A DNA stretch of 64,000 nucleotides from NCBI GenBank assembly GCA_025677605.1, contig GCA_025677605.1_4110.1. The stretch is one strand, 5' to 3'. Each line of letters starts with the position of its first letter. The first letter of the stretch is position 1. This stretch comes from a phage. A model generated the notes under the pieces. That model saw only the letters and a program-made list of their open reading frames with translations, was not told the DNA's origin and made no database searches. The position numbers and the translations under genes are program-made. This document shows, piece by piece, positions 641 to 59,702 of the stretch.

Positions 641-732
641 AATAGAGCACTGTACTTAATAGTTTTCTACTCTGTACATAAGCATTGATATTTATTTTAA
701 TTTAATAAAAATACATCCAATTTAAAGGGATA

Positions 733-2878: not shown

Positions 2879-2886
2879 TATTTATA
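2879..2886 (-). promoter_or_regulatory. Candidate late promoter (TATAAATA on minus strand) for fibre gene
   Basis: Plus strand TATTTATA about 32 nt upstream of the 2847 start codon. Confidence 0.4.
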
Positions 2887-3196: not shown

Positions 3197-3226
3197 AGAT
3201 ATCTCCTAGTATGGAGATATTTATTA

Positions 3227-6059: not shown

Positions 6060-6067
6060 TATTTATG
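6060..6067 (-). promoter_or_regulatory. Candidate late promoter (CATAAATA on minus strand) for capsid gene
   Basis: ccATAAATAata about 47 nt upstream of the start codon; part of an element shared with 8799-8890. Confidence 0.4.
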
Positions 6068-7273: not shown

Positions 7274-7281
7274 TATTTATA
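7274..7281 (-). promoter_or_regulatory. Candidate late promoter (TATAAATA on minus strand) for scaffold gene
   Basis: Plus strand TATTTATA about 50 nt upstream of the 7224 start codon. Confidence 0.45.
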
Positions 7282-7913: not shown

Positions 7914-7943
7914 AATGATCTCCTTTCTTTGTTTTATTTATTA

Positions 7944-9136: not shown

Positions 9137-9191
9137 TAATATGAAGGGAATTTTTTACGTTCCCTTCATTTATATACATTGTTATTTATTA

Positions 9192-10934: not shown

Positions 10935-13106
10935 TTAACTATTGCGTTCACCTTGTGTATTTTCAGAAATTGTTCTTAAGTAATTATTTGTCTGATTTGT
11001 TGCTGCGAGTGATTGTTCACTCATTTCTGCTAGACGTTTAAAAATTTCTTTGATCTCTTCTGAACTCATGTCATTATTTATAGTTCCGTTTTGTGGCGTT
11101 ACCAGAGATTTTATATCACGATCTGGTTCTGGTGGGAATGGTGCTTCACCAGGTTTCCATGCGGATTTATCATAATGTTTACGAGTTAATTCCATCATAG
11201 GTGGTGTATTTGGCATTACTGTAGTCTGGACGTTTTTAGGTGGTTCATAGCCCAAGACTCGATATGCATTATCTACGTTAAATGGTCTAGGTGGTGTATA
11301 TAATTTAGAAGATTTCCATTTTTGGAAGTCAAGTGTTTTTTCTTCTACAAATTTTGTGAAATCGTCTACTGAATTACCAATAGAATCCCAGAAAGATGTA
11401 GCTTTCTCTTCTATTTTCTTTTTAGGTTCTTCTTGTTTTTCAGATTTATCATCTGAACCAAACCATCCTTTTACTTTATCCCATAACTTTCCAGGTAAAT
11501 CCATGAGATTCTTCATGAAGTCATCGAATGCTTTTGAAACTTGAGTGTATGTATCACCAAATATATCTGCACCTAATCCTTCAAGCCACAATACAAATTC
11601 ATTACCGACACGATCAACATAAGCAACTGCATCCTTGAATATTGGAACTAACCCAAATCCATCTTTAGCCAATTCCCAAATAAATCCCCATGCACTATCG
11701 GTACGATCTGCAATTGCTGTCAAATAATCAACAACATTATTTTGAACATCAGCATACATTTTATTGAATGGAGCAACAAATTCAGTACTGACCCATCTGT
11801 TCAATCTATCAGTAAATTCTGCGATTTTATCTGCTGGTCGATTTTTGTCAGCATTAATTGCAGCTTCCATATCTAACATTTGCTTAGCAAATGCGGCAGC
11901 GGTGAAGTTTTGACTTCGTTGCATATCTTCCATATCTTTTTCAACGCGTTTTCTGTTTTTCTTCACCCACTGATATTGTGCTTCACGTATAGCTTTTGCA
12001 TCGGTTACACCAGACTTAACCATGTTCTCACCAAGGTCAGCGAATTCGCTAATCATTGGAGATAATAAATCATCAGGAACACCACCAATTGATATTCTGT
12101 GGCTAATCAATCTTAGGAAATCAGTACCCATATCCCCCATACCACCTGCCGCTTCGGTAAGTGCTTTAGTGGTTAATGTTGCGGTTTCTTCTGATAGTCC
12201 CACCCAGTTGTTTAGTGTAGTTTTTAGTATTCTTGCATCAAATGATTTATCAAGTGATTGTGTCTTTTTAAGTAATTCATCAATTGACATACCCATTGTC
12301 TTACTAAAAGTAGACATAGTTTTAATTAACTCTTGGGTACTTTGTGCTTGGTTTATATTCCTTACTAGTTCTGCACCACCAAATTGTTTTTGAATTTTGA
12401 TGTTACGTGCTGCTAAATCTGATAAAGTTTTTTGTGACATACCATATAGGCCAAGTTTATCTTGGGCATTTTGAACTACACCTAACAATTTACCAAATTC
12501 CTTAACGCCATCTCCATACGAACCATCCAATTGTGCAATAACATCACTATGAGTTGATATTACTTCACTGAATAGATCCATAGACATTAACGCTGAACCT
12601 GAACCTTTTAGCAAAGAGCCATAACCTTCAGCAAGAGAAACACCCGCACTGTTGACTCTGTTGTACATTTCAAGCTGGGCGTTCATTACGTTATATACTG
12701 CCATCCCTACATCAGCAACCATTTTAAATGCTGATGCTGCCATTCCTACAGGACCGGGAATCATAGAAAGAGAGCCAGCTACGGATGATGCACTCATACC
12801 CATTGAGTTAATGACAGTACTGACATTCGCTGAAGTACTCATCATTGTTTTACCAACGTTTGTCATTTCGCTGGACATTGCTCTGAACATTTTACCCATA
12901 GAGGATGAATTACCACGAGAACCGCGTCCACCACCACTTGGTCCAGGTGAATCGCCAGGTGATGGGTTACCACCACCATTATTTTTCTTTTTATCATTCT
13001 TTAAACTTTCTGCTAACAATTCACGTATAGCTGAAAGACCATCTACGGTATCATTAGATTTATTCACTATCTGTTGTAGTAAGTAATCACTGTTGTTTAC
13101 AGCCAT
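10935..13106 (-). CDS. Gly/Ser/Met-rich virion protein (tape-measure-like or ejection protein?)
   Basis: 723 aa; N-terminal GGGNPSPGDSPGPSGGGRGSRG then Met/Ala/Ser-rich helical segments; ends 16 nt before the portal start. Confidence 0.35.
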   Translation of the reverse strand: MAVNNSDYLLQQIVNKSNDTVDGLSAIRELLAESLKNDKKKNNGGGNPSPGDSPGPSGGGRGSRGNSSSMGKMFRAMSSEMTNVGKTMMSTSANVSTVINSMGMSASSVAGSLSMIPGPVGMAASAFKMVADVGMAVYNVMNAQLEMYNRVNSAGVSLAEGYGSLLKGSGSALMSMDLFSEVISTHSDVIAQLDGSYGDGVKEFGKLLGVVQNAQDKLGLYGMSQKTLSDLAARNIKIQKQFGGAELVRNINQAQSTQELIKTMSTFSKTMGMSIDELLKKTQSLDKSFDARILKTTLNNWVGLSEETATLTTKALTEAAGGMGDMGTDFLRLISHRISIGGVPDDLLSPMISEFADLGENMVKSGVTDAKAIREAQYQWVKKNRKRVEKDMEDMQRSQNFTAAAFAKQMLDMEAAINADKNRPADKIAEFTDRLNRWVSTEFVAPFNKMYADVQNNVVDYLTAIADRTDSAWGFIWELAKDGFGLVPIFKDAVAYVDRVGNEFVLWLEGLGADIFGDTYTQVSKAFDDFMKNLMDLPGKLWDKVKGWFGSDDKSEKQEEPKKKIEEKATSFWDSIGNSVDDFTKFVEEKTLDFQKWKSSKLYTPPRPFNVDNAYRVLGYEPPKNVQTTVMPNTPPMMELTRKHYDKSAWKPGEAPFPPEPDRDIKSLVTPQNGTINNDMSSEEIKEIFKRLAEMSEQSLAATNQTNNYLRTISENTQGERNS

Positions 13107-13138: not shown

Positions 13139-13146
13139 TATTTATG
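13139..13146 (-). promoter_or_regulatory. Candidate late promoter (CATAAATA on minus strand) for the 723-aa/portal operon
   Basis: ttCATAAATAttcc about 33 nt upstream of the 13106 start. Confidence 0.4.
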
Positions 13147-13213: not shown

Positions 13214-13756
13214 TTAGTATCGTGGTTCCAGTACTGCACTATAGGTTCGTTTTGGTGAACCGTCACTAACATTTTTATTACTGAATATGATAGAGTTTGT
13301 TTCTCTATTAACATACAATGTACCTTCAAGTTTTACTGTCTTTTGAACACCGCCGACAGTATAAGTGAAGTCGTTAATGTTGTAATAAACATCATATCCA
13401 GATGCAGTACTTCCAATATAACTCCATGATTCATATGTCTGACCCATCAGTACTTCATCACCGTTAACAGTGAATTGGATGAATGTCCATTTTAAATGTT
13501 CCTCGTTAGGATCTTCGTTATACAGTTTACCTTTGTAGCTAACAATTTGTGTTGGTAATTCACGTTTAGTTAACTGCTCTTTGTACTCTGATTCTTTAGA
13601 TGTGGATGTTTCGCTTTTCGGAACAATCATACCGATTACTAACATAACAACCATAAAGATACCAAAGGCTTGGAACAAACGTTTGATTGTTGTCTTTATC
13701 ATAAAATATTCCTCTTGGGTGATTTTGAAGTTTTGAACATACATAAATACTTTCAT
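13214..13756 (-). CDS. Membrane-anchored hypothetical protein (start probably Met at ~13702)
   Basis: N-terminal hydrophobic helix LFQAFGIFMVVMLVIGMIVP then a soluble beta-rich domain. Confidence 0.4.
   Translation of the reverse strand: MKVFMYVQNFKITQEEYFMIKTTIKRLFQAFGIFMVVMLVIGMIVPKSETSTSKESEYKEQLTKRELPTQIVSYKGKLYNEDPNEEHLKWTFIQFTVNGDEVLMGQTYESWSYIGSTASGYDVYYNINDFTYTVGGVQKTVKLEGTLYVNRETNSIIFSNKNVSDGSPKRTYSAVLEPRY
13743..13750 (+). promoter_or_regulatory. Candidate late promoter (CATAAATA) for gene 13762..14649
   Basis: About 30 nt upstream of the probable start ATGTCAATG (13780) with GGAG RBS. Confidence 0.35.
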
Positions 13757-14866: not shown

Positions 14867-15123
14867 GTTTTTGTTTTTTGGGTTTTTTACTTACAAAGTA
14901 GATGAAAGAAATTATGATCTTAAAAGATTTATTCTTGAAGGAATTCATTTGATTTATATTGAACTCATCTAACTCATTTCATTCGTTAGCTGAAGAATAT
15001 TCGTTAACTACGTTAACTCATATTCATTTTAATATAATTATAAAGAACTTTAAATGATTTAATACTTGACGGGATTTGTTGAGGATATTTCATCCCCCCG
15101 CAGGGGAATGAAGATAATAAAAA

Positions 15124-15148
15124 AGAGACAATTAAGTCTCTGTTTCTT
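15124..15148 (+). terminator. Hairpin with T-rich tail (terminator-like) inside the ORF-free region
   Basis: AGAGAC-aattaa-GTCTCT then GTTTCTT; an adjacent hairpin TCATCCCCCC-gca-GGGGAATGA lies at ~15090-15112. Confidence 0.3.
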
Positions 15149-15683
15149 GACGCTGATGGCATCGGTATTATTGTATTGCGAATTTCTTAAAATTTAAACG
15201 TAATTATATTGTAAAAATATTAAGAACGAAAGCGGGTTGCTCTGTTTCTCTCTATCGCAGTCATGTGCAACGGTCGTCAGTCTTAAACATCCTGACACTC
15301 ACCTGAAAGTCTATACAATCAAACTTCAGGCTGTTTAATGAAATGAATCATCAAACTCCCTTAGCAAATCTGGTAAGGTGCGATCCTTATACATCTATCG
15401 AGGAACTCTCTGTATGCTTATCGGAGTTCTTTATTGAGCCGTGTCGCCGTGAGGGGTTCATAATATGCCCACATCTAACGGGTTTCTTTTGCTCATCGCA
15501 CTGTTGAACTGCTCATCTACCCTCTACATTTTCGAGTGGATTAGGTTCTAATTTATATGCATTTCTGCATTCAACAGGATTGTCAGTACTACATGAAACA
15601 TTATAGCACGCAATTTAAAAGTGTCTCAAAATATCTAATCTTTTTTATAAAAAAGTACTTAAAAATTTCTTAGGAATGTATTT

Positions 15684-15691
15684 CATAAATA
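15684..15691 (+). promoter_or_regulatory. Candidate late promoter (CATAAATA) for endonuclease VII-like gene
   Basis: About 32 nt upstream of ATG 15724. Confidence 0.4.
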
Positions 15692-18392: not shown

Positions 18393-19442
18393 TTATAATG
18401 ATCTATAGATTTGTATTAGTAGATTCTTGTCGAACATTGGAGAATCAATTTCCATGATTTGTTGTAAAACTATCTCATCAACTGATTCAGTACTTTCAAA
18501 GTGTTCACCTTCTTCCAAAAGTTCTTTGATACTTTGTTTACTTGTAACAACGTTAAACTCACGAATATTATAAAGTTTAGTAAAAGTATCACGAATAAAA
18601 CTAATCTCATCAGTTGTGATTGGAATATCAACCTGAACTTTCGAGATAGAGTTATCTTGTAAGTAATAACTTGGATCAGTTAGTAGCTCTGACAAAGTAA
18701 ATGTTCTGTATTTCGGTGCAGCATCCCATGATTTGAATGTTGGTTCTGAACCGTGTTCAAGAATCATAACACCTCTAGCATCATCCCATGTGTCTGAGAA
18801 GTTATGAGGGAAACAGTTACCAGTATAAATGACACGAGTTCCTTTGGATGTGAGTTTTGATTGTCGTTTATGGAAATGCCCACTAAAAACATACTCACAA
18901 CCACCAAAAGAACCTTCAGTCTCTTTGCCATGATCTGGCATTTCTACCATTTTGTTAAGCAAATATCCAGGTAATTCAAGATGACCAAATACATATTTGC
19001 TTTGTAATTTAGGTAGCATTTTGTATTCATCTTCAATCATAAATGGAATGAAAGTACAATCGTCGATTGTAGTAATTTCATTAATGAACTCGATGTTTTC
19101 ATAAACTTGTGCCATATTAATACTTGTAATATCGCGTTTGTTTTTATGATACATGTCATGGTTCCCAACTAAGAAGTAAACTTTATCAAAGTTGTCATTT
19201 AGTAATTGGAGAATTTGTAAACCATAGTTTAATGTTTGAATATTAATGTTGCTGCGGTTATGGAAGTAATCTCCCATAAACACACATACTTTAATACCTT
19301 TCTTTTTGGCTTCATCAATCATAAATTTAATGAAGTTCAAACAATCTTCGTTGTGCTGCTTACTGTTATTCTTTAATCCTAAATGAATATCAGTGAATGT
19401 AATTGCTTTATCAAATAGTGCCATCGTCATTTTTCCTTTCAA
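18393..19442 (-). CDS. Recombination nuclease subunit (gp47-like, SbcD/Mre11 family)
   Basis: Calcineurin-like phosphoesterase motifs: DIHLG, GDYFH, GNHD, GHxH (FSGHFHKRQ); immediately upstream of the gp46-like gene. Confidence 0.85.
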   Translation of the reverse strand: MKGKMTMALFDKAITFTDIHLGLKNNSKQHNEDCLNFIKFMIDEAKKKGIKVCVFMGDYFHNRSNINIQTLNYGLQILQLLNDNFDKVYFLVGNHDMYHKNKRDITSINMAQVYENIEFINEITTIDDCTFIPFMIEDEYKMLPKLQSKYVFGHLELPGYLLNKMVEMPDHGKETEGSFGGCEYVFSGHFHKRQSKLTSKGTRVIYTGNCFPHNFSDTWDDARGVMILEHGSEPTFKSWDAAPKYRTFTLSELLTDPSYYLQDNSISKVQVDIPITTDEISFIRDTFTKLYNIREFNVVTSKQSIKELLEEGEHFESTESVDEIVLQQIMEIDSPMFDKNLLIQIYRSL

Positions 19443-20295
19443 TCATATTCATTTCGATTTCAATCTGTCTTGTATGTGATGGTGTAAAACCATGCATCTC
19501 AAGAAGGTCGTCGCGAATGTTACGTACATTCTTCTCACTGTTCAAAATAGAACGGAAGCTATTGTTAACGAATGACGTATAGTATGAGAAAGGATTTAGT
19601 TGGACAGCGGGTTTATCTTTCTTATACAAGATACTCTCTTTAAAGAGAAGTGCATTTTTAACTAATTGTATTCTAGCATCACCCATCATTTCATCCAAAT
19701 ACGTATAATTTCTGTAGTTAGATTTGTGAGAGATCTCTTCTGCTAGTTTAATGAACATTTTACCGAGTTCATTTGTGATTTTACCATGTGTTAAGCAGAA
19801 ATCGCCATCTTCCAAGTCGCCTTTCCAATGTGAACGAACAACTTCATACAGAATACCTTCATTATCAACGATATAATGTTTAAATGGTTCAAAATTCACT
19901 CGTGTATCTGGTGGAATGTGCTCATCAGTGATAACTCGAATCACCACTTCATCCAGTGGTACATCATTTACGAATAGACCGTGCTCATCAGCATATTCCT
20001 TTGCTTTCTTAGCACTCATATTCTCTTTTTCGCGAACACTATCAAGCATTTCATTATTCAAACGTTTGATTCGTGCTGCTTTTGCCTTTTCAAGTAATTC
20101 TTCTGTGATTTCAGACTCATGAAACACAATATAATCATACATACCATAACTTTTATCCAAAAGCCAGCAGTATGATATCTTACTTTTATGTATTTCACGT
20201 AATAAGTCTGCGTTATTCAGATACTTCTTACGCTTCGGCTTGTTTATCATTGTAACTCTCCATGTAATGACCAATAGGCACAATCCGTGTGCCAT
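19411..20295 (-). CDS. Late-transcription sigma factor (gp55-like) with internal insertion; probable start Met at 20250 (MINKPK)
   Basis: N-terminus INKPKRKKYLNNADLLREI vs T4 gp55 TKPKYNYVNNKELLQAI; core LGKMFIKLAEEIS...NYTYLDEMMGDA...NPFSYYTSFVNNSF vs T4 IGLAIMLIAEGLS...SGYTQSWKQEMIADG...NPHAYITQACFNAF (from memory). Confidence 0.7.
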   Translation of the reverse strand: MAHGLCLLVITWRVTMINKPKRKKYLNNADLLREIHKSKISYCWLLDKSYGMYDYIVFHESEITEELLEKAKAARIKRLNNEMLDSVREKENMSAKKAKEYADEHGLFVNDVPLDEVVIRVITDEHIPPDTRVNFEPFKHYIVDNEGILYEVVRSHWKGDLEDGDFCLTHGKITNELGKMFIKLAEEISHKSNYRNYTYLDEMMGDARIQLVKNALLFKESILYKKDKPAVQLNPFSYYTSFVNNSFRSILNSEKNVRNIRDDLLEMHGFTPSHTRQIEIEMNMIERKNDDGTI

Positions 20296-20302
20296 CGCTA
20301 AT

Positions 20303-20330
20303 ATTATAGCACTAAAATCAGCTTTGTCCC
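20303..20330 (-). promoter_or_regulatory. sigma70-like promoter for the gp55-gp47-gp46 operon
   Basis: Minus-strand GGGACA-16-TATAAT followed by a 5'-UTR hairpin GGCACAcggatTGTGCC and a GGAG RBS. Confidence 0.45.
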
Positions 20331-20333
20331 ACC

Positions 20334-20341
20334 TATAAATA
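20334..20341 (+). promoter_or_regulatory. Candidate late promoter (TATAAATA) for the baseplate operon
   Basis: Exact TATAAATA about 34 nt upstream of ATG 20375; divergent from the gp55 promoter. Confidence 0.5.
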
Positions 20342-20347
20342 CTTCAA

Positions 20348-21106
20348 ATGTTTCCTTGTAATGGAGTAACACAAATGATTGATCGTCGAATCCGACTAAG
20401 ACCTAAAGCCGCTGGTGCTAACTATGTGTATGGGGATTTTGGTGACGGAGCCAACCCAACACTACTATCGTTTTTGCGTCCAACCAATGGTTTGGTATGG
20501 ACCGTAACGCCAACAATCACTGAACAAAGAAGTATTCAGTATGAAACACAGTCTCCTGTGCATTCAAATAGTAACTATAACAACTATAAAAATACAAGTA
20601 ATACTATTTTCACGATACAAGGTGAATTTTATGCAAATACTGCTGCTGAAGCTCTATACACTTTAGCATGTATGCATTTTATTCGCTCTGTATCATTGAT
20701 GGATTTTGGTAGAAAAGCTGCATCAGCTAATAACCCCGATTTAGCTGTTCCTGGTGCACCACCACCAATCCTATTACTAAGTGGGTATGGTCGTTATACA
20801 TATAATGATATTCCTGTAGTAATGAAATCATATAATTTTACCTATCCAAATGATGTTTCTTATATTCAAGTACCATTGGATAGTAGTAACAGTACTTTTA
20901 ATTTGTCCGATATGGATAGTAGACAATTTTTTGAACAATTAAGAAGTTCTGGGTACATGAATCCACAAGATGAAGTGTGGGTTCCACAAAAGATATCGGT
21001 AACTATTCAATTAGAAGAGCAACCAACATCAGAATTTATGACTAAGAAGTTTAATCTTAACGCATTTAAGCGTGGTGATATGCTTCGCAATGGAGGATTC
21101 ATTTAA
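20348..21106 (+). CDS. Virion structural protein (baseplate/tail); probable start at 20375 (MIDRR)
   Basis: 252-aa ORF heading the baseplate operon; conserved motif TAATGGAGTAACACA immediately precedes ATG 20375; stop overlaps next start (TAATG). Confidence 0.4.
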   Translation: MFPCNGVTQMIDRRIRLRPKAAGANYVYGDFGDGANPTLLSFLRPTNGLVWTVTPTITEQRSIQYETQSPVHSNSNYNNYKNTSNTIFTIQGEFYANTAAEALYTLACMHFIRSVSLMDFGRKAASANNPDLAVPGAPPPILLLSGYGRYTYNDIPVVMKSYNFTYPNDVSYIQVPLDSSNSTFNLSDMDSRQFFEQLRSSGYMNPQDEVWVPQKISVTIQLEEQPTSEFMTKKFNLNAFKRGDMLRNGGFI

Positions 21107-21420
21107 TGTCAAACTATAGTCAATATTCACCTTATGCAAAAGTTAAACAGACGTGGTATTTGGATTATACCTTACCTCGTGACATAATTCCAGCAGATAC
21201 TGATGATTTTTATGAAATACCTGCAAAGTACAACCACCAACCGTGGCGTTTAGCGTATGAAATGTATGGTAATGAGCGTTTATATTATGTATTCGCCTTA
21301 CTTAATCCTGATTTATTGGGTGAAGACCCGATTTACAACTTTCAAACTGGAATAACTATTAGAGTACCGTCAAGTCAACGCATTCAATCATACCTTAATG
21401 GTACACGCAGTGTAGGTTAA
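21106..21420 (+). CDS. Small baseplate wedge protein (gp53-like)
   Basis: LAYEMYGNERLYYVFALLNPDLLGEDPIYNF resembles the gp53 segment LANAIYGNPQLYWVLLMCNDNYDPYYGW (from memory); directly upstream of the hub gene region. Confidence 0.4.
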   Translation: MSNYSQYSPYAKVKQTWYLDYTLPRDIIPADTDDFYEIPAKYNHQPWRLAYEMYGNERLYYVFALLNPDLLGEDPIYNFQTGITIRVPSSQRIQSYLNGTRSVG

Positions 21421-21431
21421 TGGAGTAACAC

Positions 21432-23582
21432 ATGGATACTAAAATTGGACTAGACCCTAGTCAGAGTAACAAATATGGTGCTAAAGTAAGTAACGTACAA
21501 TCAAAACCAATTCAAAGCACACATACTGATAGAATTTATGACGATAAAAAGATTTCTGATTTTATTATTGACAATGAAAATGTTTTATTAAAATACAATT
21601 CAGCAACGTGGCACTTTACCTTGTTTGCCTTAGATAAAGATGACTTTAAGATGTTCTGGGAAAATCCAGATGCTGAAGTCCAACGTTATGTAATCACTGA
21701 AAGTGGCGTTACTGGTAAGTATAATATCACAAATGTTCAGATGACGCAAGCTGGTCCCTCAACTCCTGGTATGACAACAAACTATACATTTAATACTGCT
21801 TCAATAAGTATGTCAGAAAACAATAGTATGAGTTTTTACGATGAGTTGATATCATTAAGTAATAAACTTCGTTATCATAAATTTATGGATTTACCATTAA
21901 TCCTTGAACTAAAGTTCATTGGTTATAATGAAGATGGTGTTCCTCAAGTCATACCAAACACTACAAAACGTTGGTCAGTGAAGATTAACAACGTTAAAGC
22001 AAGTGCCAGTGCAACTGGTAGTACAATGTTATATACCATTAACTTAGTACACAATCGTGCTGCATTGGTTGATAACGTAGAATGGACATTAAAAGAAACA
22101 TTCTCATGTACTGCTGCACAATTTGGAGCATTTTGTTATGATTTGGAAGATAAGTTAAATGAAATGTCAGAACAACAGTATGGTTATTTGTGTATGAAAT
22201 TTCCAGAACTGGCAGAAGGTAAATTTTTTGAATTTAAAGTTGCACCTGAACTTGCTGATATGTTCATAAACTATGATTCTAAACAAATGACTGAAGTAAC
22301 TTCAACAAAAAATGGTTCACAGGGTTCTAAAAACTTTTCATGGAATCCAAGTACACCAATATCAAGAATAATTGATGATGTTATTGATGCATGTACTGTT
22401 CGTGAAGGTGATAGTACTAGCGTTCGTCAATTTGTTAATATAATCCCACTTAAACAATATGTTGGTTTTGATAATTTACGTAACACATCAGTATATAAAG
22501 TTATTTTTAATATTGTTCGTTTTCGTATTGGTGATGTTGTTCATGAATCCGATTTACAACCAGAAAACTTTAACTTCGAAACGTTCCTAGAAAACTCTGA
22601 ACGTTATCTTGACCCTAGAGATAATGAAGAAAAGTTAAGAATGAAAATATACAATTATCAATTCAGTGGATTGAATAATGAAATATTAGATTTGGATATG
22701 AATTTCGATCAGCAATTTTATGTAGCTACAACACGTAACCCAGGTCCAATACAAGACCAAGGTAACAGAAGTGGTACACATGCATCACAGGAATTAACCA
22801 TACAAGGGGTTCAATATAGTAACCCATTAGATGCGTGGAATAAGACTAGTGATATAAGAAAAGCACGAAGTAAAGGGGAAATTATAACACAAGCTCAAAC
22901 TGCATTACTAAATGAAGTAGATGAGCAATTAAAAAATGCGATGGGTGTGGGTAATCAAGAAGAACAAGATGCTTATATGAATTACAAAGTTCATGTCCTT
23001 CCTGAATACATTGAAGATTATCGTAGTGTATATGAAGAAAATGACATGGGTGCTGATGGAATTGGTGATCGTAGGGGTGAAATATTCACTATACCAACTG
23101 AAGCTACAAACAACCATACAACTTTATCGGCATCTGATAACGATAATAGTAGTACGTATGAAATGGACAGACGTAAAATACGCGACAACTATTATAACCG
23201 TCCATTTATGTGTAAGTTGGATATGCGTGTAATTGGTGACCCATATTGGTTGGGGTGGGGTGATCATGCATATCTTCAATATTTGGATATGTTGGTAAAT
23301 GGTGAAGCATTATATATAAATCCAGAGGATTTCAAATATGCAAATTATATTTCAACTGAAGCATATTTGTTATTGAAATTACAACCAGTTGTTTCTATTA
23401 ATGATAATACTGGTATTTTGGACATAACCACGCCAACCACATTCAACGAAACAATCTATCGCGTAAACAAAATAATTCATGATTTTGGTACAAACGGTAC
23501 TTTCACGCAACAAATTCAAGGTGCTATTGTCGCTCGTGCACTTAAACGTAAAGATAGTATAATAAACCCAGGTGGTGAGTAA
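21432..23582 (+). CDS. Baseplate structural protein (possibly hub-associated)
   Basis: 716-aa ORF, translationally coupled to the gp5-like gene (TAATG overlap); no motif recognised. Confidence 0.4.
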   Translation: MDTKIGLDPSQSNKYGAKVSNVQSKPIQSTHTDRIYDDKKISDFIIDNENVLLKYNSATWHFTLFALDKDDFKMFWENPDAEVQRYVITESGVTGKYNITNVQMTQAGPSTPGMTTNYTFNTASISMSENNSMSFYDELISLSNKLRYHKFMDLPLILELKFIGYNEDGVPQVIPNTTKRWSVKINNVKASASATGSTMLYTINLVHNRAALVDNVEWTLKETFSCTAAQFGAFCYDLEDKLNEMSEQQYGYLCMKFPELAEGKFFEFKVAPELADMFINYDSKQMTEVTSTKNGSQGSKNFSWNPSTPISRIIDDVIDACTVREGDSTSVRQFVNIIPLKQYVGFDNLRNTSVYKVIFNIVRFRIGDVVHESDLQPENFNFETFLENSERYLDPRDNEEKLRMKIYNYQFSGLNNEILDLDMNFDQQFYVATTRNPGPIQDQGNRSGTHASQELTIQGVQYSNPLDAWNKTSDIRKARSKGEIITQAQTALLNEVDEQLKNAMGVGNQEEQDAYMNYKVHVLPEYIEDYRSVYEENDMGADGIGDRRGEIFTIPTEATNNHTTLSASDNDNSSTYEMDRRKIRDNYYNRPFMCKLDMRVIGDPYWLGWGDHAYLQYLDMLVNGEALYINPEDFKYANYISTEAYLLLKLQPVVSINDNTGILDITTPTTFNETIYRVNKIIHDFGTNGTFTQQIQGAIVARALKRKDSIINPGGE

Positions 23583-26245
23583 TGGCAGATACAAGTAAAA
23601 AGTATGCAAAGGAACAGTTGGGTCGTTTTGACCCATCTTATCCACAATTAGCAACCGTTATGGATAACCGTGATCCTACGAAATCTGGTAAGCTAAAAGT
23701 ATGGATACAAGGTTCACAAAGTGATAAAAACTCTAAAGATTCATGGATTGAAGCTTCTTATATGGCTCCGTTTGCTGGCAAAACTCCAGGAATACCGAGT
23801 GCAGATAGTTATGGACAATATCCAAAGGGTTATGGTTTTTGGGCCGTTCCACCAGATGTGGGATGTACTGTTGTTGTTATTTTTGCACAAGCACGTACAT
23901 TCCAAGCTTACTGGATTGGATGTGTTTATGACCAACGTATGAATACAATGGTTCCTGGAATGGCAACTGCGGATACCAATTACAATGGTACTGATATGCC
24001 ATTACCAGTAACTGATTATGATCGTAACACAATCACAACTGACATGCAAGACAAATATATTAACGTTCCTGCTGTTGAAGGATTGAAAAAACAAAACTTA
24101 TTATACGATGATGAAGCAGGTGTTGCAAACCGTAGCAGTACTCGTCAAACAACCAGTACTGTATATGGTATGAGTACACCTCGTGGTAATAGTTTTATTC
24201 TTGATGATGGATATACCGAAGAAGAATTAACCAAACCAACATGGGATCAAGATCCTGATGGATATCAAGACACACAATTTAACAACCCAGTTAATGACAC
24301 GCGTGTTGGTTCCCGTAAGAATGAAGGTATTGTTATTAAAACACGTAGTGGTGCACAACTTCTTATTTCTGAAGCTACTGGTAATGTTTTATTAATTAAC
24401 CGCGACGGTACGGCTCGTATTAAATTCACTGGCGATGGTGATATTGAAATGCACTGTGATAAAAACATAAACATTCGTGCAGGTCAAGATATTAACATGG
24501 TTGCAGGTCGTTCTTATAATATTGAAAGTGGGCAAGACTTCAATACTCGTGTTGGTGGAAATACCAAACTGGAATTGGTCGGTAATTTGGATGCTAAGGT
24601 CAATGGTCAGGTTGTAATTAATTCTGGTGCTGATCTTCGTTTGGTTACTGGTGCTTCATTACGTCTTCAAAGTGGTAGCAGTACTGATATTACGGCTGGG
24701 TCAACTGCATCTATTAAAGGTTCATCCTCTGCAAACGTTATTGGTGGTTCATCCGTTAACATTAGTGGTGGTGGTCAAAACCTAACAGTTGATAGTTCAG
24801 GTAATAGTGGTAGTGCTGCATTCATGGCTCCTGACTTCAAAACTCCATCAGTGGGTCTTAATGACCACATTCATATGATTGCTAACTGGAAAGATGCAGA
24901 AAACCACGGTGATAGGGTTGATCCTGGTATAAGTGGTGGTGGTCAAGGTAGTACGACATCTCCGGTTGAACCACAACCAGCTAACGATGTTAAACCAACA
25001 CTAGCAGAACAACAAGAAACTGAAGCAGTTCAATTTGTAAACTATGCTCCAGAGACGAGTGAAGTTCAAACGCAAGATTTAATGGCGGCTGAGCCTGGAA
25101 TGACTGGTTATTCACAGACGTTTGAAGGTTTGCATATGCTTATGCCATGTAGTGGTACTATACGCCAGAATGGATATTGGGGTAAAGGTGTAACAACCGA
25201 AAATGGAACCAAGCGTGATAGTAGTGGGTGGGAAATTCAAGCCCGTGGTAGTGTGGTTGCACCAGACGGTGGTATTGTTGGTATCAGTGGTGATGCTATT
25301 ATTGTTGAGCATAAATCTGGTTATAAATCGGTTTTCTATGGTTTAACTTCTGACCTATTCAATAAAGATGTTGTTGAAAAAGGGCAAGTGATAGGAACTG
25401 CCAATGGAATACTTCGATTTGAAATAAGAGTTCGATCATCTAATATCTATGGTTTTAGTGGTTCAGTCGATCCTGGGTTATTCTACACAACTGTAACTGG
25501 TCAGGGTTCTGCTGCTGCGAATAAAACATTAATTGGGGGCCAACCATCAACACAAAATAATCCTAAAGATGTGGTCAGACCATCTGCTGATAGTGATGAA
25601 TTGGTAATATCAACTCGCATACGAACTATTGGAACTGGTTATTCACAACGTGGTTCTCGTCATGTTCCTCGTCGTAGAGAACGTAAGCCTCGAAATGCAG
25701 GAACCGCTCCAAAAGTTGAACAAAATTATAATGTAGGTAATGTTGATAAAACTGCCGTTGGATGGAAAGTTGCTCCGGGTGATTCCCAATTTATATCAGA
25801 ACTTAAAGAACACGAAGGTACTATCCAATATCAAACAGCACTTGGATATTTCAGAAATGGAAAATTCTGGCGTTATATTGATAGCCGTGGATTCCCTACA
25901 ATTGGATATGGACACCTTATTGTCGGAGGTGAAGATTTTTCTGGTGGTATAACTGAAGCAGAAGCTGAAGCAATGTTAGTACGAGACAGTACGCAAGCAA
26001 TTAATGATGCCAAATCAATATATGCGGCATGGGATTTAAAAACACCTGTTATTGCTCAACAAGTACTATGTCAAATGGTATTCCAAATGGGCAAATACAA
26101 AGTTCAAAAATTCAAAGGTATGCTTGGATGTTTAGCTAAAGGTGATTATCGTGGTGCTGCTGCTCATATACGTAGTTCAGCTTGGTATCGTCAAACAACT
26201 CGTCGTGCAGAGTTAATGGCACGTAGAATTGAGGCATGTCAATAA
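23582..26245 (+). CDS. Baseplate central spike/hub protein (gp5/VgrG-like) with M23/LytM-like and C-terminal T4-lysozyme-like domains
   Basis: N-terminus DNRDPTKSGKLKVWIQGS resembles gp5 OB-fold start (…DPKLSGRVRVRVVG…); repetitive beta-helix ~24540-24800; M23-like segment ~25170-25470; C-terminal 160 aa (YxDSxGxxTIGYGHL, MVFQMG, SAWYRQT) is T4-lysozyme-like. Confidence 0.75.
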   Translation: MADTSKKYAKEQLGRFDPSYPQLATVMDNRDPTKSGKLKVWIQGSQSDKNSKDSWIEASYMAPFAGKTPGIPSADSYGQYPKGYGFWAVPPDVGCTVVVIFAQARTFQAYWIGCVYDQRMNTMVPGMATADTNYNGTDMPLPVTDYDRNTITTDMQDKYINVPAVEGLKKQNLLYDDEAGVANRSSTRQTTSTVYGMSTPRGNSFILDDGYTEEELTKPTWDQDPDGYQDTQFNNPVNDTRVGSRKNEGIVIKTRSGAQLLISEATGNVLLINRDGTARIKFTGDGDIEMHCDKNINIRAGQDINMVAGRSYNIESGQDFNTRVGGNTKLELVGNLDAKVNGQVVINSGADLRLVTGASLRLQSGSSTDITAGSTASIKGSSSANVIGGSSVNISGGGQNLTVDSSGNSGSAAFMAPDFKTPSVGLNDHIHMIANWKDAENHGDRVDPGISGGGQGSTTSPVEPQPANDVKPTLAEQQETEAVQFVNYAPETSEVQTQDLMAAEPGMTGYSQTFEGLHMLMPCSGTIRQNGYWGKGVTTENGTKRDSSGWEIQARGSVVAPDGGIVGISGDAIIVEHKSGYKSVFYGLTSDLFNKDVVEKGQVIGTANGILRFEIRVRSSNIYGFSGSVDPGLFYTTVTGQGSAAANKTLIGGQPSTQNNPKDVVRPSADSDELVISTRIRTIGTGYSQRGSRHVPRRRERKPRNAGTAPKVEQNYNVGNVDKTAVGWKVAPGDSQFISELKEHEGTIQYQTALGYFRNGKFWRYIDSRGFPTIGYGHLIVGGEDFSGGITEAEAEAMLVRDSTQAINDAKSIYAAWDLKTPVIAQQVLCQMVFQMGKYKVQKFKGMLGCLAKGDYRGAAAHIRSSAWYRQTTRRAELMARRIEACQ

Positions 26246-26248
26246 ATA
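26241..26248 (+). promoter_or_regulatory. Candidate late promoter (AATAAATA) for endolysin gene
   Basis: ATAAATA core ~32 nt upstream of ATG 26280; a second copy at 26257-26264. Confidence 0.35.
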
Positions 26249-26279
26249 TTTTATCCAATAAATATTATAGGAGAAGTAT

Positions 26280-27211: not shown

Positions 27212-27219
27212 GATAAATA
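27212..27219 (+). promoter_or_regulatory. Candidate late promoter (GATAAATA) for gp6-like gene
   Basis: ATAAATA core ~58 nt upstream of ATG 27277, followed by TTTCAGTACTG element. Confidence 0.35.
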
Positions 27220-30775: not shown

Positions 30776-30792
30776 TAGCATAAATAAATCAA

Positions 30793-48828: not shown

Positions 48829-48836
48829 TATTTATT
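48829..48836 (-). promoter_or_regulatory. Candidate late promoter (AATAAATA on minus strand) for operon 48796->46573
   Basis: Plus strand TATTTATT about 33 nt upstream of the 48796 start. Confidence 0.35.
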
Positions 48837-48862: not shown

Positions 48863-48870
48863 GATAAATA
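48863..48870 (+). promoter_or_regulatory. Candidate late promoter (GATAAATA) for collagen-like gene
   Basis: About 36 nt upstream of ATG 48906; divergent from the preceding promoter. Confidence 0.35.
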
Positions 48871-53187: not shown

Positions 53188-53195
53188 AATAAATA
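53188..53195 (+). promoter_or_regulatory. Candidate late promoter (AATAAATA) for the 1847-aa fibre gene
   Basis: About 58 nt upstream of ATG 53253. Confidence 0.35.
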
Positions 53196-59694: not shown

Positions 59695-59702
59695 AATAAA
59701 TA
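59695..59702 (+). promoter_or_regulatory. Candidate late promoter (AATAAATA) for fibre gene 59733
   Basis: About 31 nt upstream of the start codon. Confidence 0.35.

Follow-up and report, generated by a model that had tools for sequence, protein, structure and literature searches.

The stretch of phage DNA analysed here (GenBank assembly GCA_025677605.1, contig GCA_025677605.1_4110.1; 64,000 nucleotides (nt), referred to as the window) carries, on its minus strand, a gene for a late sigma factor with a large additional domain. The encoded protein of 279 residues was 100% identical to A4_588, annotated as "sigma factor for late transcription" in Escherichia phage A4 (ON286972.1), which is an Asteriusvirus and a Rak2/121Q/PBECO4-like jumbo myovirus of 355,528 bp. 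All features are listed in Table 1. The open reading frame (ORF) containing the gene spans 19411–20295, and the initial annotation had placed the probable start at the ATG at 20250 (MINKPK); this was supported by a Shine-Dalgarno-like GGAGAG sequence 5 nt before that ATG, by the GenBank record, in which the gene is 840 nt long and begins at the same codon, and by the N-termini of homologues, which begin at roughly residue 1 of the A4 protein in the alignment. The upstream ATG at 20295 was rejected as a start, being only 8 nt 3' of the predicted -10 hexamer. The known relative of this protein is gp55 of phage T4, the textbook minimal sigma factor, which is weak alone and depends on a sliding clamp, loaded on DNA, that acts as a mobile enhancer. 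As first reported, the difference in length between the two (about 279 against 185 residues) is real, and was attributed to a folded domain of 125 residues lying between the first two helices, H1 and H2, of the A4 protein.

Judging from comparison of sequences, the gene can be taken with good confidence to encode the late sigma factor of a jumbo phage of the Rak2/121Q-like kind, the protein belonging to the lineage of minimal sigma factors typified by T4 gp55. The protein matched PHROG 12791, "sigma factor for late transcription", with residues 3–277 on positions 2–284 of the 286 in that profile (E = 1e-151), and also PHROG 234, the T4-type late sigma (E = 3e-17). When a profile of 66 family sequences was compared with the PDB, gp55 (7d7c_F) was the sole match below E = 0.1 (E = 4e-7), while hhalign returned a probability of 98% (E = 8e-14) against an alignment of nine short gp55s, taken from T4, phages of Acinetobacter and Aeromonas, two Vibrio phages, two cyanophages, PhiW-14 and Moby. 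A search of the PDB with the single sequence by phmmer found nothing relevant, and a Pfam search of the protein matched no family, sigma regions 3 and 4 included. The resemblance to gp55 proposed by the initial annotation was therefore significant; the conserved N-terminal motif and the sigma-like core that it described were both recovered, since the family profile aligned to T4 gp55 in two pieces.

The residues with which gp55 reads its promoter and binds RNA polymerase have been defined in T4 (Shi et al., PMC7892883): the beta-prime clamp helices are its binding site on the polymerase, flipped bases of the non-template strand are read, N13 touches the -9 adenine, and a helix-loop-helix grips the template strand. 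In alignment with T4 (7D7C/7D7D chain F; PHROG 234), the A4 protein retained the pocket for the -10-like element, its residues N13, F203, Y223 and T225 being equivalent to N13, F86, Y97 and T99 of T4; T4 has the same residue at all four positions, and each varies little or not at all across the family of long homologues. The alignments also equated K240 with R114, E187 with E70 and D191 with D74, so that, of three acidic residues contacting the beta-prime clamp helices in T4, two are kept. The third does not favour the assignment, since E77 is not conserved and is replaced by I194. Within the pocket itself, L54, R57 and H95 of T4 have I, K and F221, respectively, in their place, and the loop between H3 and H4 is 9 residues longer in A4. 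Helices predicted for the core (H2, 160–174; H3, 185–198; H4, 220–252; H5, 259–275) reproduce, together with H1, the region-2 homology domain (H1–H4) used for binding the beta-prime clamp helices, followed by the helix-loop-helix of a long H4 and H5, with K240 as its basic residue opposite R114. As in T4, regions 3 and 4 are absent, the protein stopping four residues beyond H5, and the gene lies beside those for gp47 and gp46. The chief departure is one of size, for the gp55 type is a compact protein of about 160–230 residues with a short linker between H1 and H2, whereas here there are 279 residues with a linker domain of 125.

The position of the additional residues was established from several comparisons. 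The family profile aligned with T4 gp55 in two blocks, positions 2–26 to 2–26 and positions 149–243 to 23–116. Compared with the N-termini of short gp55s, the first 32 residues of the long family scored 23.2 (E = 4e-4), with positions 1–20 aligned to 1–20, and when the whole of residues 1–152 was offered to the short gp55s, the N-terminal end was the preferred match. The motif concerned falls on the same residue numbers in both proteins (Y10-L-N-N13-x-D-L16-L17-x-x-I20 in A4; Y10-V-N-N13-x-E-L16-L17-x-x-I20 in T4), and it was present before the domain in 196 of 219 retrieved proteins having the RSHW motif described below, the median distance being 136 residues. Hence, the extra residues were considered to be internal, as the initial annotation had supposed, rather than the product of a misannotated N-terminus. 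That a block of approximately 125 residues was inserted between H1 and H2, the packing of H1 being deduced from topology, was given a rough probability of 0.9.

The same residues might instead be an N-terminal extension, with the true equivalent of H1 at residues 124–142 (KHYIVDNEGILYEVVRSHW); the YLNNADLL sequence at the N-terminus would then be a chance resemblance, or a duplicated look-alike that opens an added N-terminal domain. Local alignments do speak against an internal insertion on this point: BLASTP paired T4 residues 7–134 with residues 124–248 of the A4 protein, positions 8–135 of the PHROG 234 profile paired with residues 125–262, and hhalign paired T4 residues 6–129 with residues 122–255. 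W142 was placed opposite T4 W23 in the BLASTP, PHROG, hhalign and family-profile alignments alike. However, a gap of 115 residues is too costly for local aligners; because it cannot be skipped cheaply, they extend through the adjacent sequence instead. On its own, the segment of residues 112–146 scored only 9.2 (E = 0.06) against the short N-termini, to be compared with 23.2 for the actual N-terminus. N13 is conserved in at least 90% of the long family, while the residue set opposite T4 N13 in the local alignments is not conserved, and L16, L17 and I20 of the N-terminal motif are identical to T4. Furthermore, residues 13–25 were predicted to be helical, like H1 in T4 (PMC7892883), whereas residues 123–128 and 134–139 were confidently predicted to form a beta hairpin (predicted local distance difference test, pLDDT, above 90). 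Segment comparison, the conservation of N13 and predicted structure thus make an N-terminal extension very unlikely. The internal position is also favoured by the behaviour of the block when modelled alone, which is that expected of an inserted autonomous domain.

Modelled in isolation, residues 27–152 gave a high-confidence fold (pLDDT 95.6, predicted template modelling score 0.84), and the insert was considered an autonomous domain for this reason. In the initial annotation, it was described as approximately 100 acidic, helical residues between positions 30 and 150; of this, the internal placement and the acidity stand, but the block is larger (about 125 residues, 27–152) and has a mixed alpha/beta composition rather than a purely helical one. 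Strands were predicted at residues 28–30 and 40–42, helices at 50–76 (27 residues) and 80–89 (10 residues), which are predicted to form a hairpin, and further strands at 104–107, 123–128 and 134–139. The domain closes with RSHW (residues 139–142) immediately before H2, in which SHW is invariant and R139 nearly so. Conserved basic residues are few (R60, R63, K81, R105, K124 and R139). The net charge in the A4 clade was -12, with an isoelectric point of 4.8, and ranged from -1 to -16 across the family, with a median of -9. Such values raise the improbable case of an auto-inhibitory or DNA-mimicking element, comparable with region 1.1 of sigma-70, that would prevent non-specific DNA binding by free sigma or holoenzyme, or would aid promoter escape; the non-conserved region of E. 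coli sigma-70 likewise has acidic elements. However, a charge that varies over this range shows that acidity is not a conserved property of the insert, and the domain is predicted to be folded and rigid, and is situated after H1 rather than at the N-terminus.

The long form was found to be widespread. A profile of the insert, compared with 1.84 billion representative proteins, matched 396 clusters (at 50% identity) with E values up to 1e-3, and 235 of these with E values up to 1e-10. The match began at around residues 22–30 in most of the 150 clusters listed, and further in for the others. All nine sequences examined in full were gp55-like, and the NPFxY core followed the domain in 199 of the 219 retrieved RSHW proteins. 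Some members of the family, such as two of 241 residues, have a shortened helical hairpin and retain the beta part. About 90 sequenced phage genomes contained the long form, with sequence conservation down to 43% identity, and the hosts of these jumbo phages comprised Escherichia, Klebsiella, Salmonella, Erwinia, Yersinia, Xanthomonas, Vibrio and Pseudomonas. Given this distribution, the long form is a large and old lineage and not an oddity of a single phage. The family corresponds to PHROG 12791 (RaK2, 121Q, PBECO4, GAP32, CBB_244 and PA5oct-like phages), of which the A4 protein is a full-length member without any difference at the family level.

These results also bear on whether the block could be a selfish insert, such as an intein or other mobile element, or an artefact of annotation or assembly. 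Inteins do occur in the long gp55 family, but elsewhere in the protein, at position 182/183 and around position 230, inside the core. The block has neither intein junction residues nor endonuclease motifs, and its conservation to 43% identity with invariant residues, in some 90 genomes and 396 clusters, together with its folding in isolation, refutes an intein or mobile-element origin; the probability left to a selfish or artefactual block is negligible.

The intein-like inserts were observed in 33 of 146 long-form cluster representatives, these being 400–980 residues long and interrupted at A4 position 182/183 (between NYRNY and TY), at the start of the polymerase-binding H3 (codons at approximately 19702–19707 in the window). 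At least eight representatives had a second insert near position 230, in the DNA-reading H4 (approximately 19561 in the window), so that both sites fall in the most conserved, functional helices. In the sequences examined, the first residue of the insert was Cys and the last Asn, followed by Ser or Cys, and there were weak Pfam matches to Intein_splicing and LAGLIDADG. Carriers include the homologues P0129, P0132, P0157, P0189 and P0227.

A late promoter motif of the cognate type was present upstream of late genes, its sites being candidates by position. The A4 motif, ATAAATA, is nearly the same as that of T4, TATAAATA. There were 20 copies of ATAAATA in the window where 32 were expected by chance; 18 of these lay in non-coding DNA, which makes up 4.4% of the window, and 19 were no more than 60 nt upstream of a gene on the same strand, including baseplate, portal and capsid genes. 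The full TATAAATA occurred only 4 times, against 9 expected. Aligned sites extend to ATAAATA-ttt..ATA. In CBB and GAP32, which are relatives, ATAAATA was previously reported upstream of structural genes, alongside a gp55-like gene (Buttimer et al., PMC5259590). The motif is seemingly avoided within coding sequence, and the aligned sites share (C/T)ATA 3–5 nt past ATAAATA, possibly as a start site.

No ATAAATA motif was found ahead of the sigma gene itself, which may be transcribed early or in the middle period from a strong predicted sigma-70-type promoter of its own. In the intergenic region of 52 bp (20296–20347), this promoter and the TATAAATA of the divergent structural gene are arranged back to back, with 3 bp between the -35 hexamer and the late motif. 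The GenBank start of the divergent gene is about 27 nt downstream of the start given by the ORF caller, at 20348.

Table 1. Features of the late sigma gene, its flanks and candidate late promoter sites, in window coordinates
Feature	Position	Strand	Remarks
Late sigma coding sequence (279 residues + stop)	19411–20250	-	Protein identical to A4_588
Helix H1 motif, residues 10–25, YLNNADLLREIHKSKI	20176–20223	-	T4 H1 equivalent YVNNKELLQAIIDWKT; includes N13; helix predicted at 13–25
Inserted acidic alpha/beta domain, residues 27–152	19795–20172	-	
Sigma region-2 homology core and helix-loop-helix, residues 153–275	19426–19794	-	From alignments and predicted helices
C-terminal end, residues 276–279, DGTI	19414–19425	-	
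Shine-Dalgarno-like GGAGAG	20256–20261	-	5 nt 5' of ATG 20250; read from sequence
gp47/SbcD-like nuclease gene	18393–19424	-	Annotated ATG 19424; 14-nt overlap with sigma gene
Predicted sigma-70-type promoter of sigma gene	20303–20330	-	GGGACA, 16-nt spacer, TGcTATAAT extended -10; consensus match 10/12
TATAAATA, T4 late-promoter consensus	20334–20341	+	7 nt upstream of ORF-caller start 20348, divergent structural gene
ATAAATA	689–695	-	49 nt upstream of same-strand gene
ATAAATA, full TATAAATA	2879–2885	-	32 nt upstream of same-strand gene
ATAAATA	3218–3224	-	22 nt upstream of same-strand gene
ATAAATA	6060–6066	-	47 nt upstream of major-capsid-protein gene region
ATAAATA, full TATAAATA	7274–7280	-	50 nt upstream of same-strand gene
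ATAAATA	7935–7941	-	22 nt upstream of same-strand gene
ATAAATA	9183–9189	-	47 nt upstream of same-strand gene
ATAAATA	13139–13145	-	33 nt upstream of same-strand gene
ATAAATA	13743–13749	+	13 nt upstream of same-strand gene
ATAAATA	15685–15691	+	33 nt upstream of same-strand gene
Two ATAAATA	26242–26248, 26258–26264	+	32 and 16 nt upstream of same-strand gene
ATAAATA	27213–27219	+	58 nt upstream of baseplate-wedge gene
ATAAATA	30780–30786	+	7 nt upstream of 10-kb structural-protein gene
Divergent ATAAATA pair	48829–48835 (-), 48864–48870 (+)	-/+	Each 33–36 nt upstream of own gene
ATAAATA	53189–53195	+	58 nt upstream of same-strand gene
ATAAATA	59696–59702	+	31 nt upstream of same-strand gene

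A further difference from T4 concerned the clamp pathway. The A4 protein ends in ERKNDDGTI, without an aromatic or hydrophobic clamp-binding motif such as the SLDFLYEAND of T4, and an aromatic tail was present in only 8 of 199 full-length long-form proteins (191 being without it). The clamp-binding tail is not universal in the gp55 family, since some short gp55s (ACG-2014f and Moby) also lack it. Whether a gp33-like co-activator and a gp45-like clamp exist elsewhere in the genome, a question raised by the initial annotation, was addressed with hidden Markov models (HMMs), by which neither was detectable: models of gp33 (44 homologues) and gp45 (116 homologues) found nothing among 3,142 six-frame ORFs of the whole A4 genome (best E = 0.57 and 0.29, respectively), although the sequences used for building them were 33–99% identical and very divergent homologues could escape. 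Among the annotations of the whole 355-kb record, in which gp45, gp33 and gp62 were sought, only a gp44-like clamp loader appeared, and single-sequence phmmer searches of the genome likewise matched gp44 (E = 8e-24) and no gp45, gp33 or gp62. Neither a clamp nor a co-activator was found by comparing some 20 unannotated proteins of the replication module (100–370 residues) with PHROGs and Pfam, and a scan for small A4 proteins with aromatic C-terminal tails returned noise only. The partnership with gp33 and gp45 that is typical of gp55 was, therefore, not recognisable in A4, and CBB was likewise reported to have neither gp33 nor gp45 (Buttimer et al., PMC5259590).

An insertion at what may be a comparable position is known in bacterial sigma factors. 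The non-conserved region of sigma-70 sits between regions 1.2 and 2.1, and contacts DNA through R157 (bioRxiv 10.1101/256826). Like that region of group 1 sigmas, the A4 insert is lineage-specific, is predicted to fold independently, is acidic and probably lies between a region-1.2-like helix and region 2.1, but it showed no homology or similarity of fold to a known non-conserved region. The following mechanism was proposed. The A4 sigma would take the place of sigma-70 on the host core RNA polymerase, and would open ATAAATA promoters in the manner of gp55, with flipped adenines held in the H1 and H4 pockets and the template strand in the helix-loop-helix. If the junction of H1 and H2 is the topological counterpart of the site of the sigma-70 non-conserved region, the insert would most likely lie on the outer, upstream face of the clamp. 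From there it could touch RNA polymerase at additional points, or reach the DNA backbone via R60, R63, K81, R105, K124 and R139, and such contacts might stabilise the holoenzyme or the open complex; equivalent stabilisation is provided in T4 in trans, by gp33 and the sliding clamp. Stabilisation through contacts with RNA polymerase or DNA, for which the position of the insert was deduced from topology, is put forward tentatively, as a possibility that falls short of being probable. Stabilisation of this kind would lessen the dependence of the sigma factor on T4-style activation by gp33 and the sliding clamp; the A4 protein lacks the clamp-binding tail, and the genome lacks detectable partners. 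It is doubtful that the insert defines a second, clamp-independent mode of gp55-type late transcription; if it did, the loss of the tail in most of the lineage and the lack of recognisable gp33 and gp45 would be explained.

Several observations weigh against this proposal. The strong acidity of the insert in the A4 clade does not suit a simple DNA-binding role. In one subclade, which is formed by the eight proteins with aromatic tails, is approximately 50% identical to the A4 protein and includes Vibrio phage 2.275.O (among homologues P0094–P0113), the insert occurs together with longer acidic tails (GGMFDWGGE, SIFDFGDGNV and DDLFPFDD; motifs include LFDFG and ILTYDD) that resemble the clamp-binding peptides of T4 and RB69; hence, the clamp tether was not simply exchanged for the insert. 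Iyer et al. (2021) asserted that gp33 orthologues and PCNA-type clamps are present in jumbo phages of this group. The A4 genome encodes the gp44-type clamp loader mentioned above (L006:4226–5179), and its family B DNA polymerase (L005:595–3600) ends in EKSTAAVNNGFFSW, an aromatic NNGFFSW tail that could be a clamp-binding motif. Given a clamp loader and such a polymerase tail, a very divergent clamp may exist. The gp44-like gene is followed by a translationally coupled gene for a product of 206 residues, which may be a small loader subunit.

An unrecognised clamp, as suggested by the loader and the polymerase tail, would be compatible with another role for the insert, namely that it is mainly a docking platform for a phage or host protein, such as an unrecognised co-activator, an anti-sigma-like timer or the divergent clamp. 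Late transcription would then remain coupled to replication, as it is in T4, through a different partner, and the acidic surface and the invariant residues kept across 396 clusters are consistent with this. No candidate partner was identified, however, there being no signal of a clamp or of gp33 in PHROGs or Pfam for the approximately 20 replication-module proteins, and a docking role, which is deduced entirely, was judged to be rather unlikely.

With respect to what was already known, the gene and its annotation are established, and for the relatives CBB and GAP32 both the resemblance to gp55 and the ATAAATA motif had been reported (PMC5259590); the basic role of a gene annotated beforehand is unsurprising. 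The papers searched name the gene, but none was found to describe the inserted domain, its placement at a site like that of the non-conserved region, the breadth of its distribution or the widespread loss of the C-terminal clamp-binding motif, and the domain therefore seems to be undescribed. Its interest is that a widespread sister form of the minimal sigma factor has an extra domain, predicted to be folded, apparently at the site where bacterial primary sigmas have their non-conserved region. Among the carriers, which are mostly without the clamp-binding tail, are jumbo phages of E. coli, Klebsiella, Erwinia and Pseudomonas that are studied for use in therapy. The long form is thus a natural experiment on the function of such sigma insertions, and bears on whether late transcription in these jumbo phages remains coupled to replication.

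Among the neighbouring genes, the gp47/SbcD-like nuclease gene follows the sigma gene directly, and the 14-nt overlap between them suggests translational coupling; a gp46/SbcC-like gene comes next, giving the order gp55-gp47-gp46. Adjacency of gp55 and gp47 with overlap was also seen in phages PhiW-14 and Moby and in cyanophage BUCT-ZZ01, and the two genes are loosely adjacent in T4. For the gp47-like ORF, the listed TTG start (19442) probably lies further upstream than the true one.

The window and ON286972.1 had 99.3% DNA identity over 40 kb (positions 1–40250), with 272 mismatches and 4 gaps, and therefore the window and phage A4 belong to one species, apparently with different exact sequences. 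Both ends of this comparison matched perfectly, over 183 and 827 bases, and the differences were concentrated at approximately 2000–2500, 11500–12000, 15000–15500 and 21000–25500, leaving the sigma protein unaffected. Outside the window, three more genes of the A4 genome were annotated as sigma-like (L006:48938–49900, L007:1886–2164 and L008:33644–33976); these include a sigma-70-family protein of 320 residues (PHROG 351, E = 2e-50), the other two being small fragments or putative sigma factors. Re-programming of the host polymerase by this phage may therefore take place in two or more stages.

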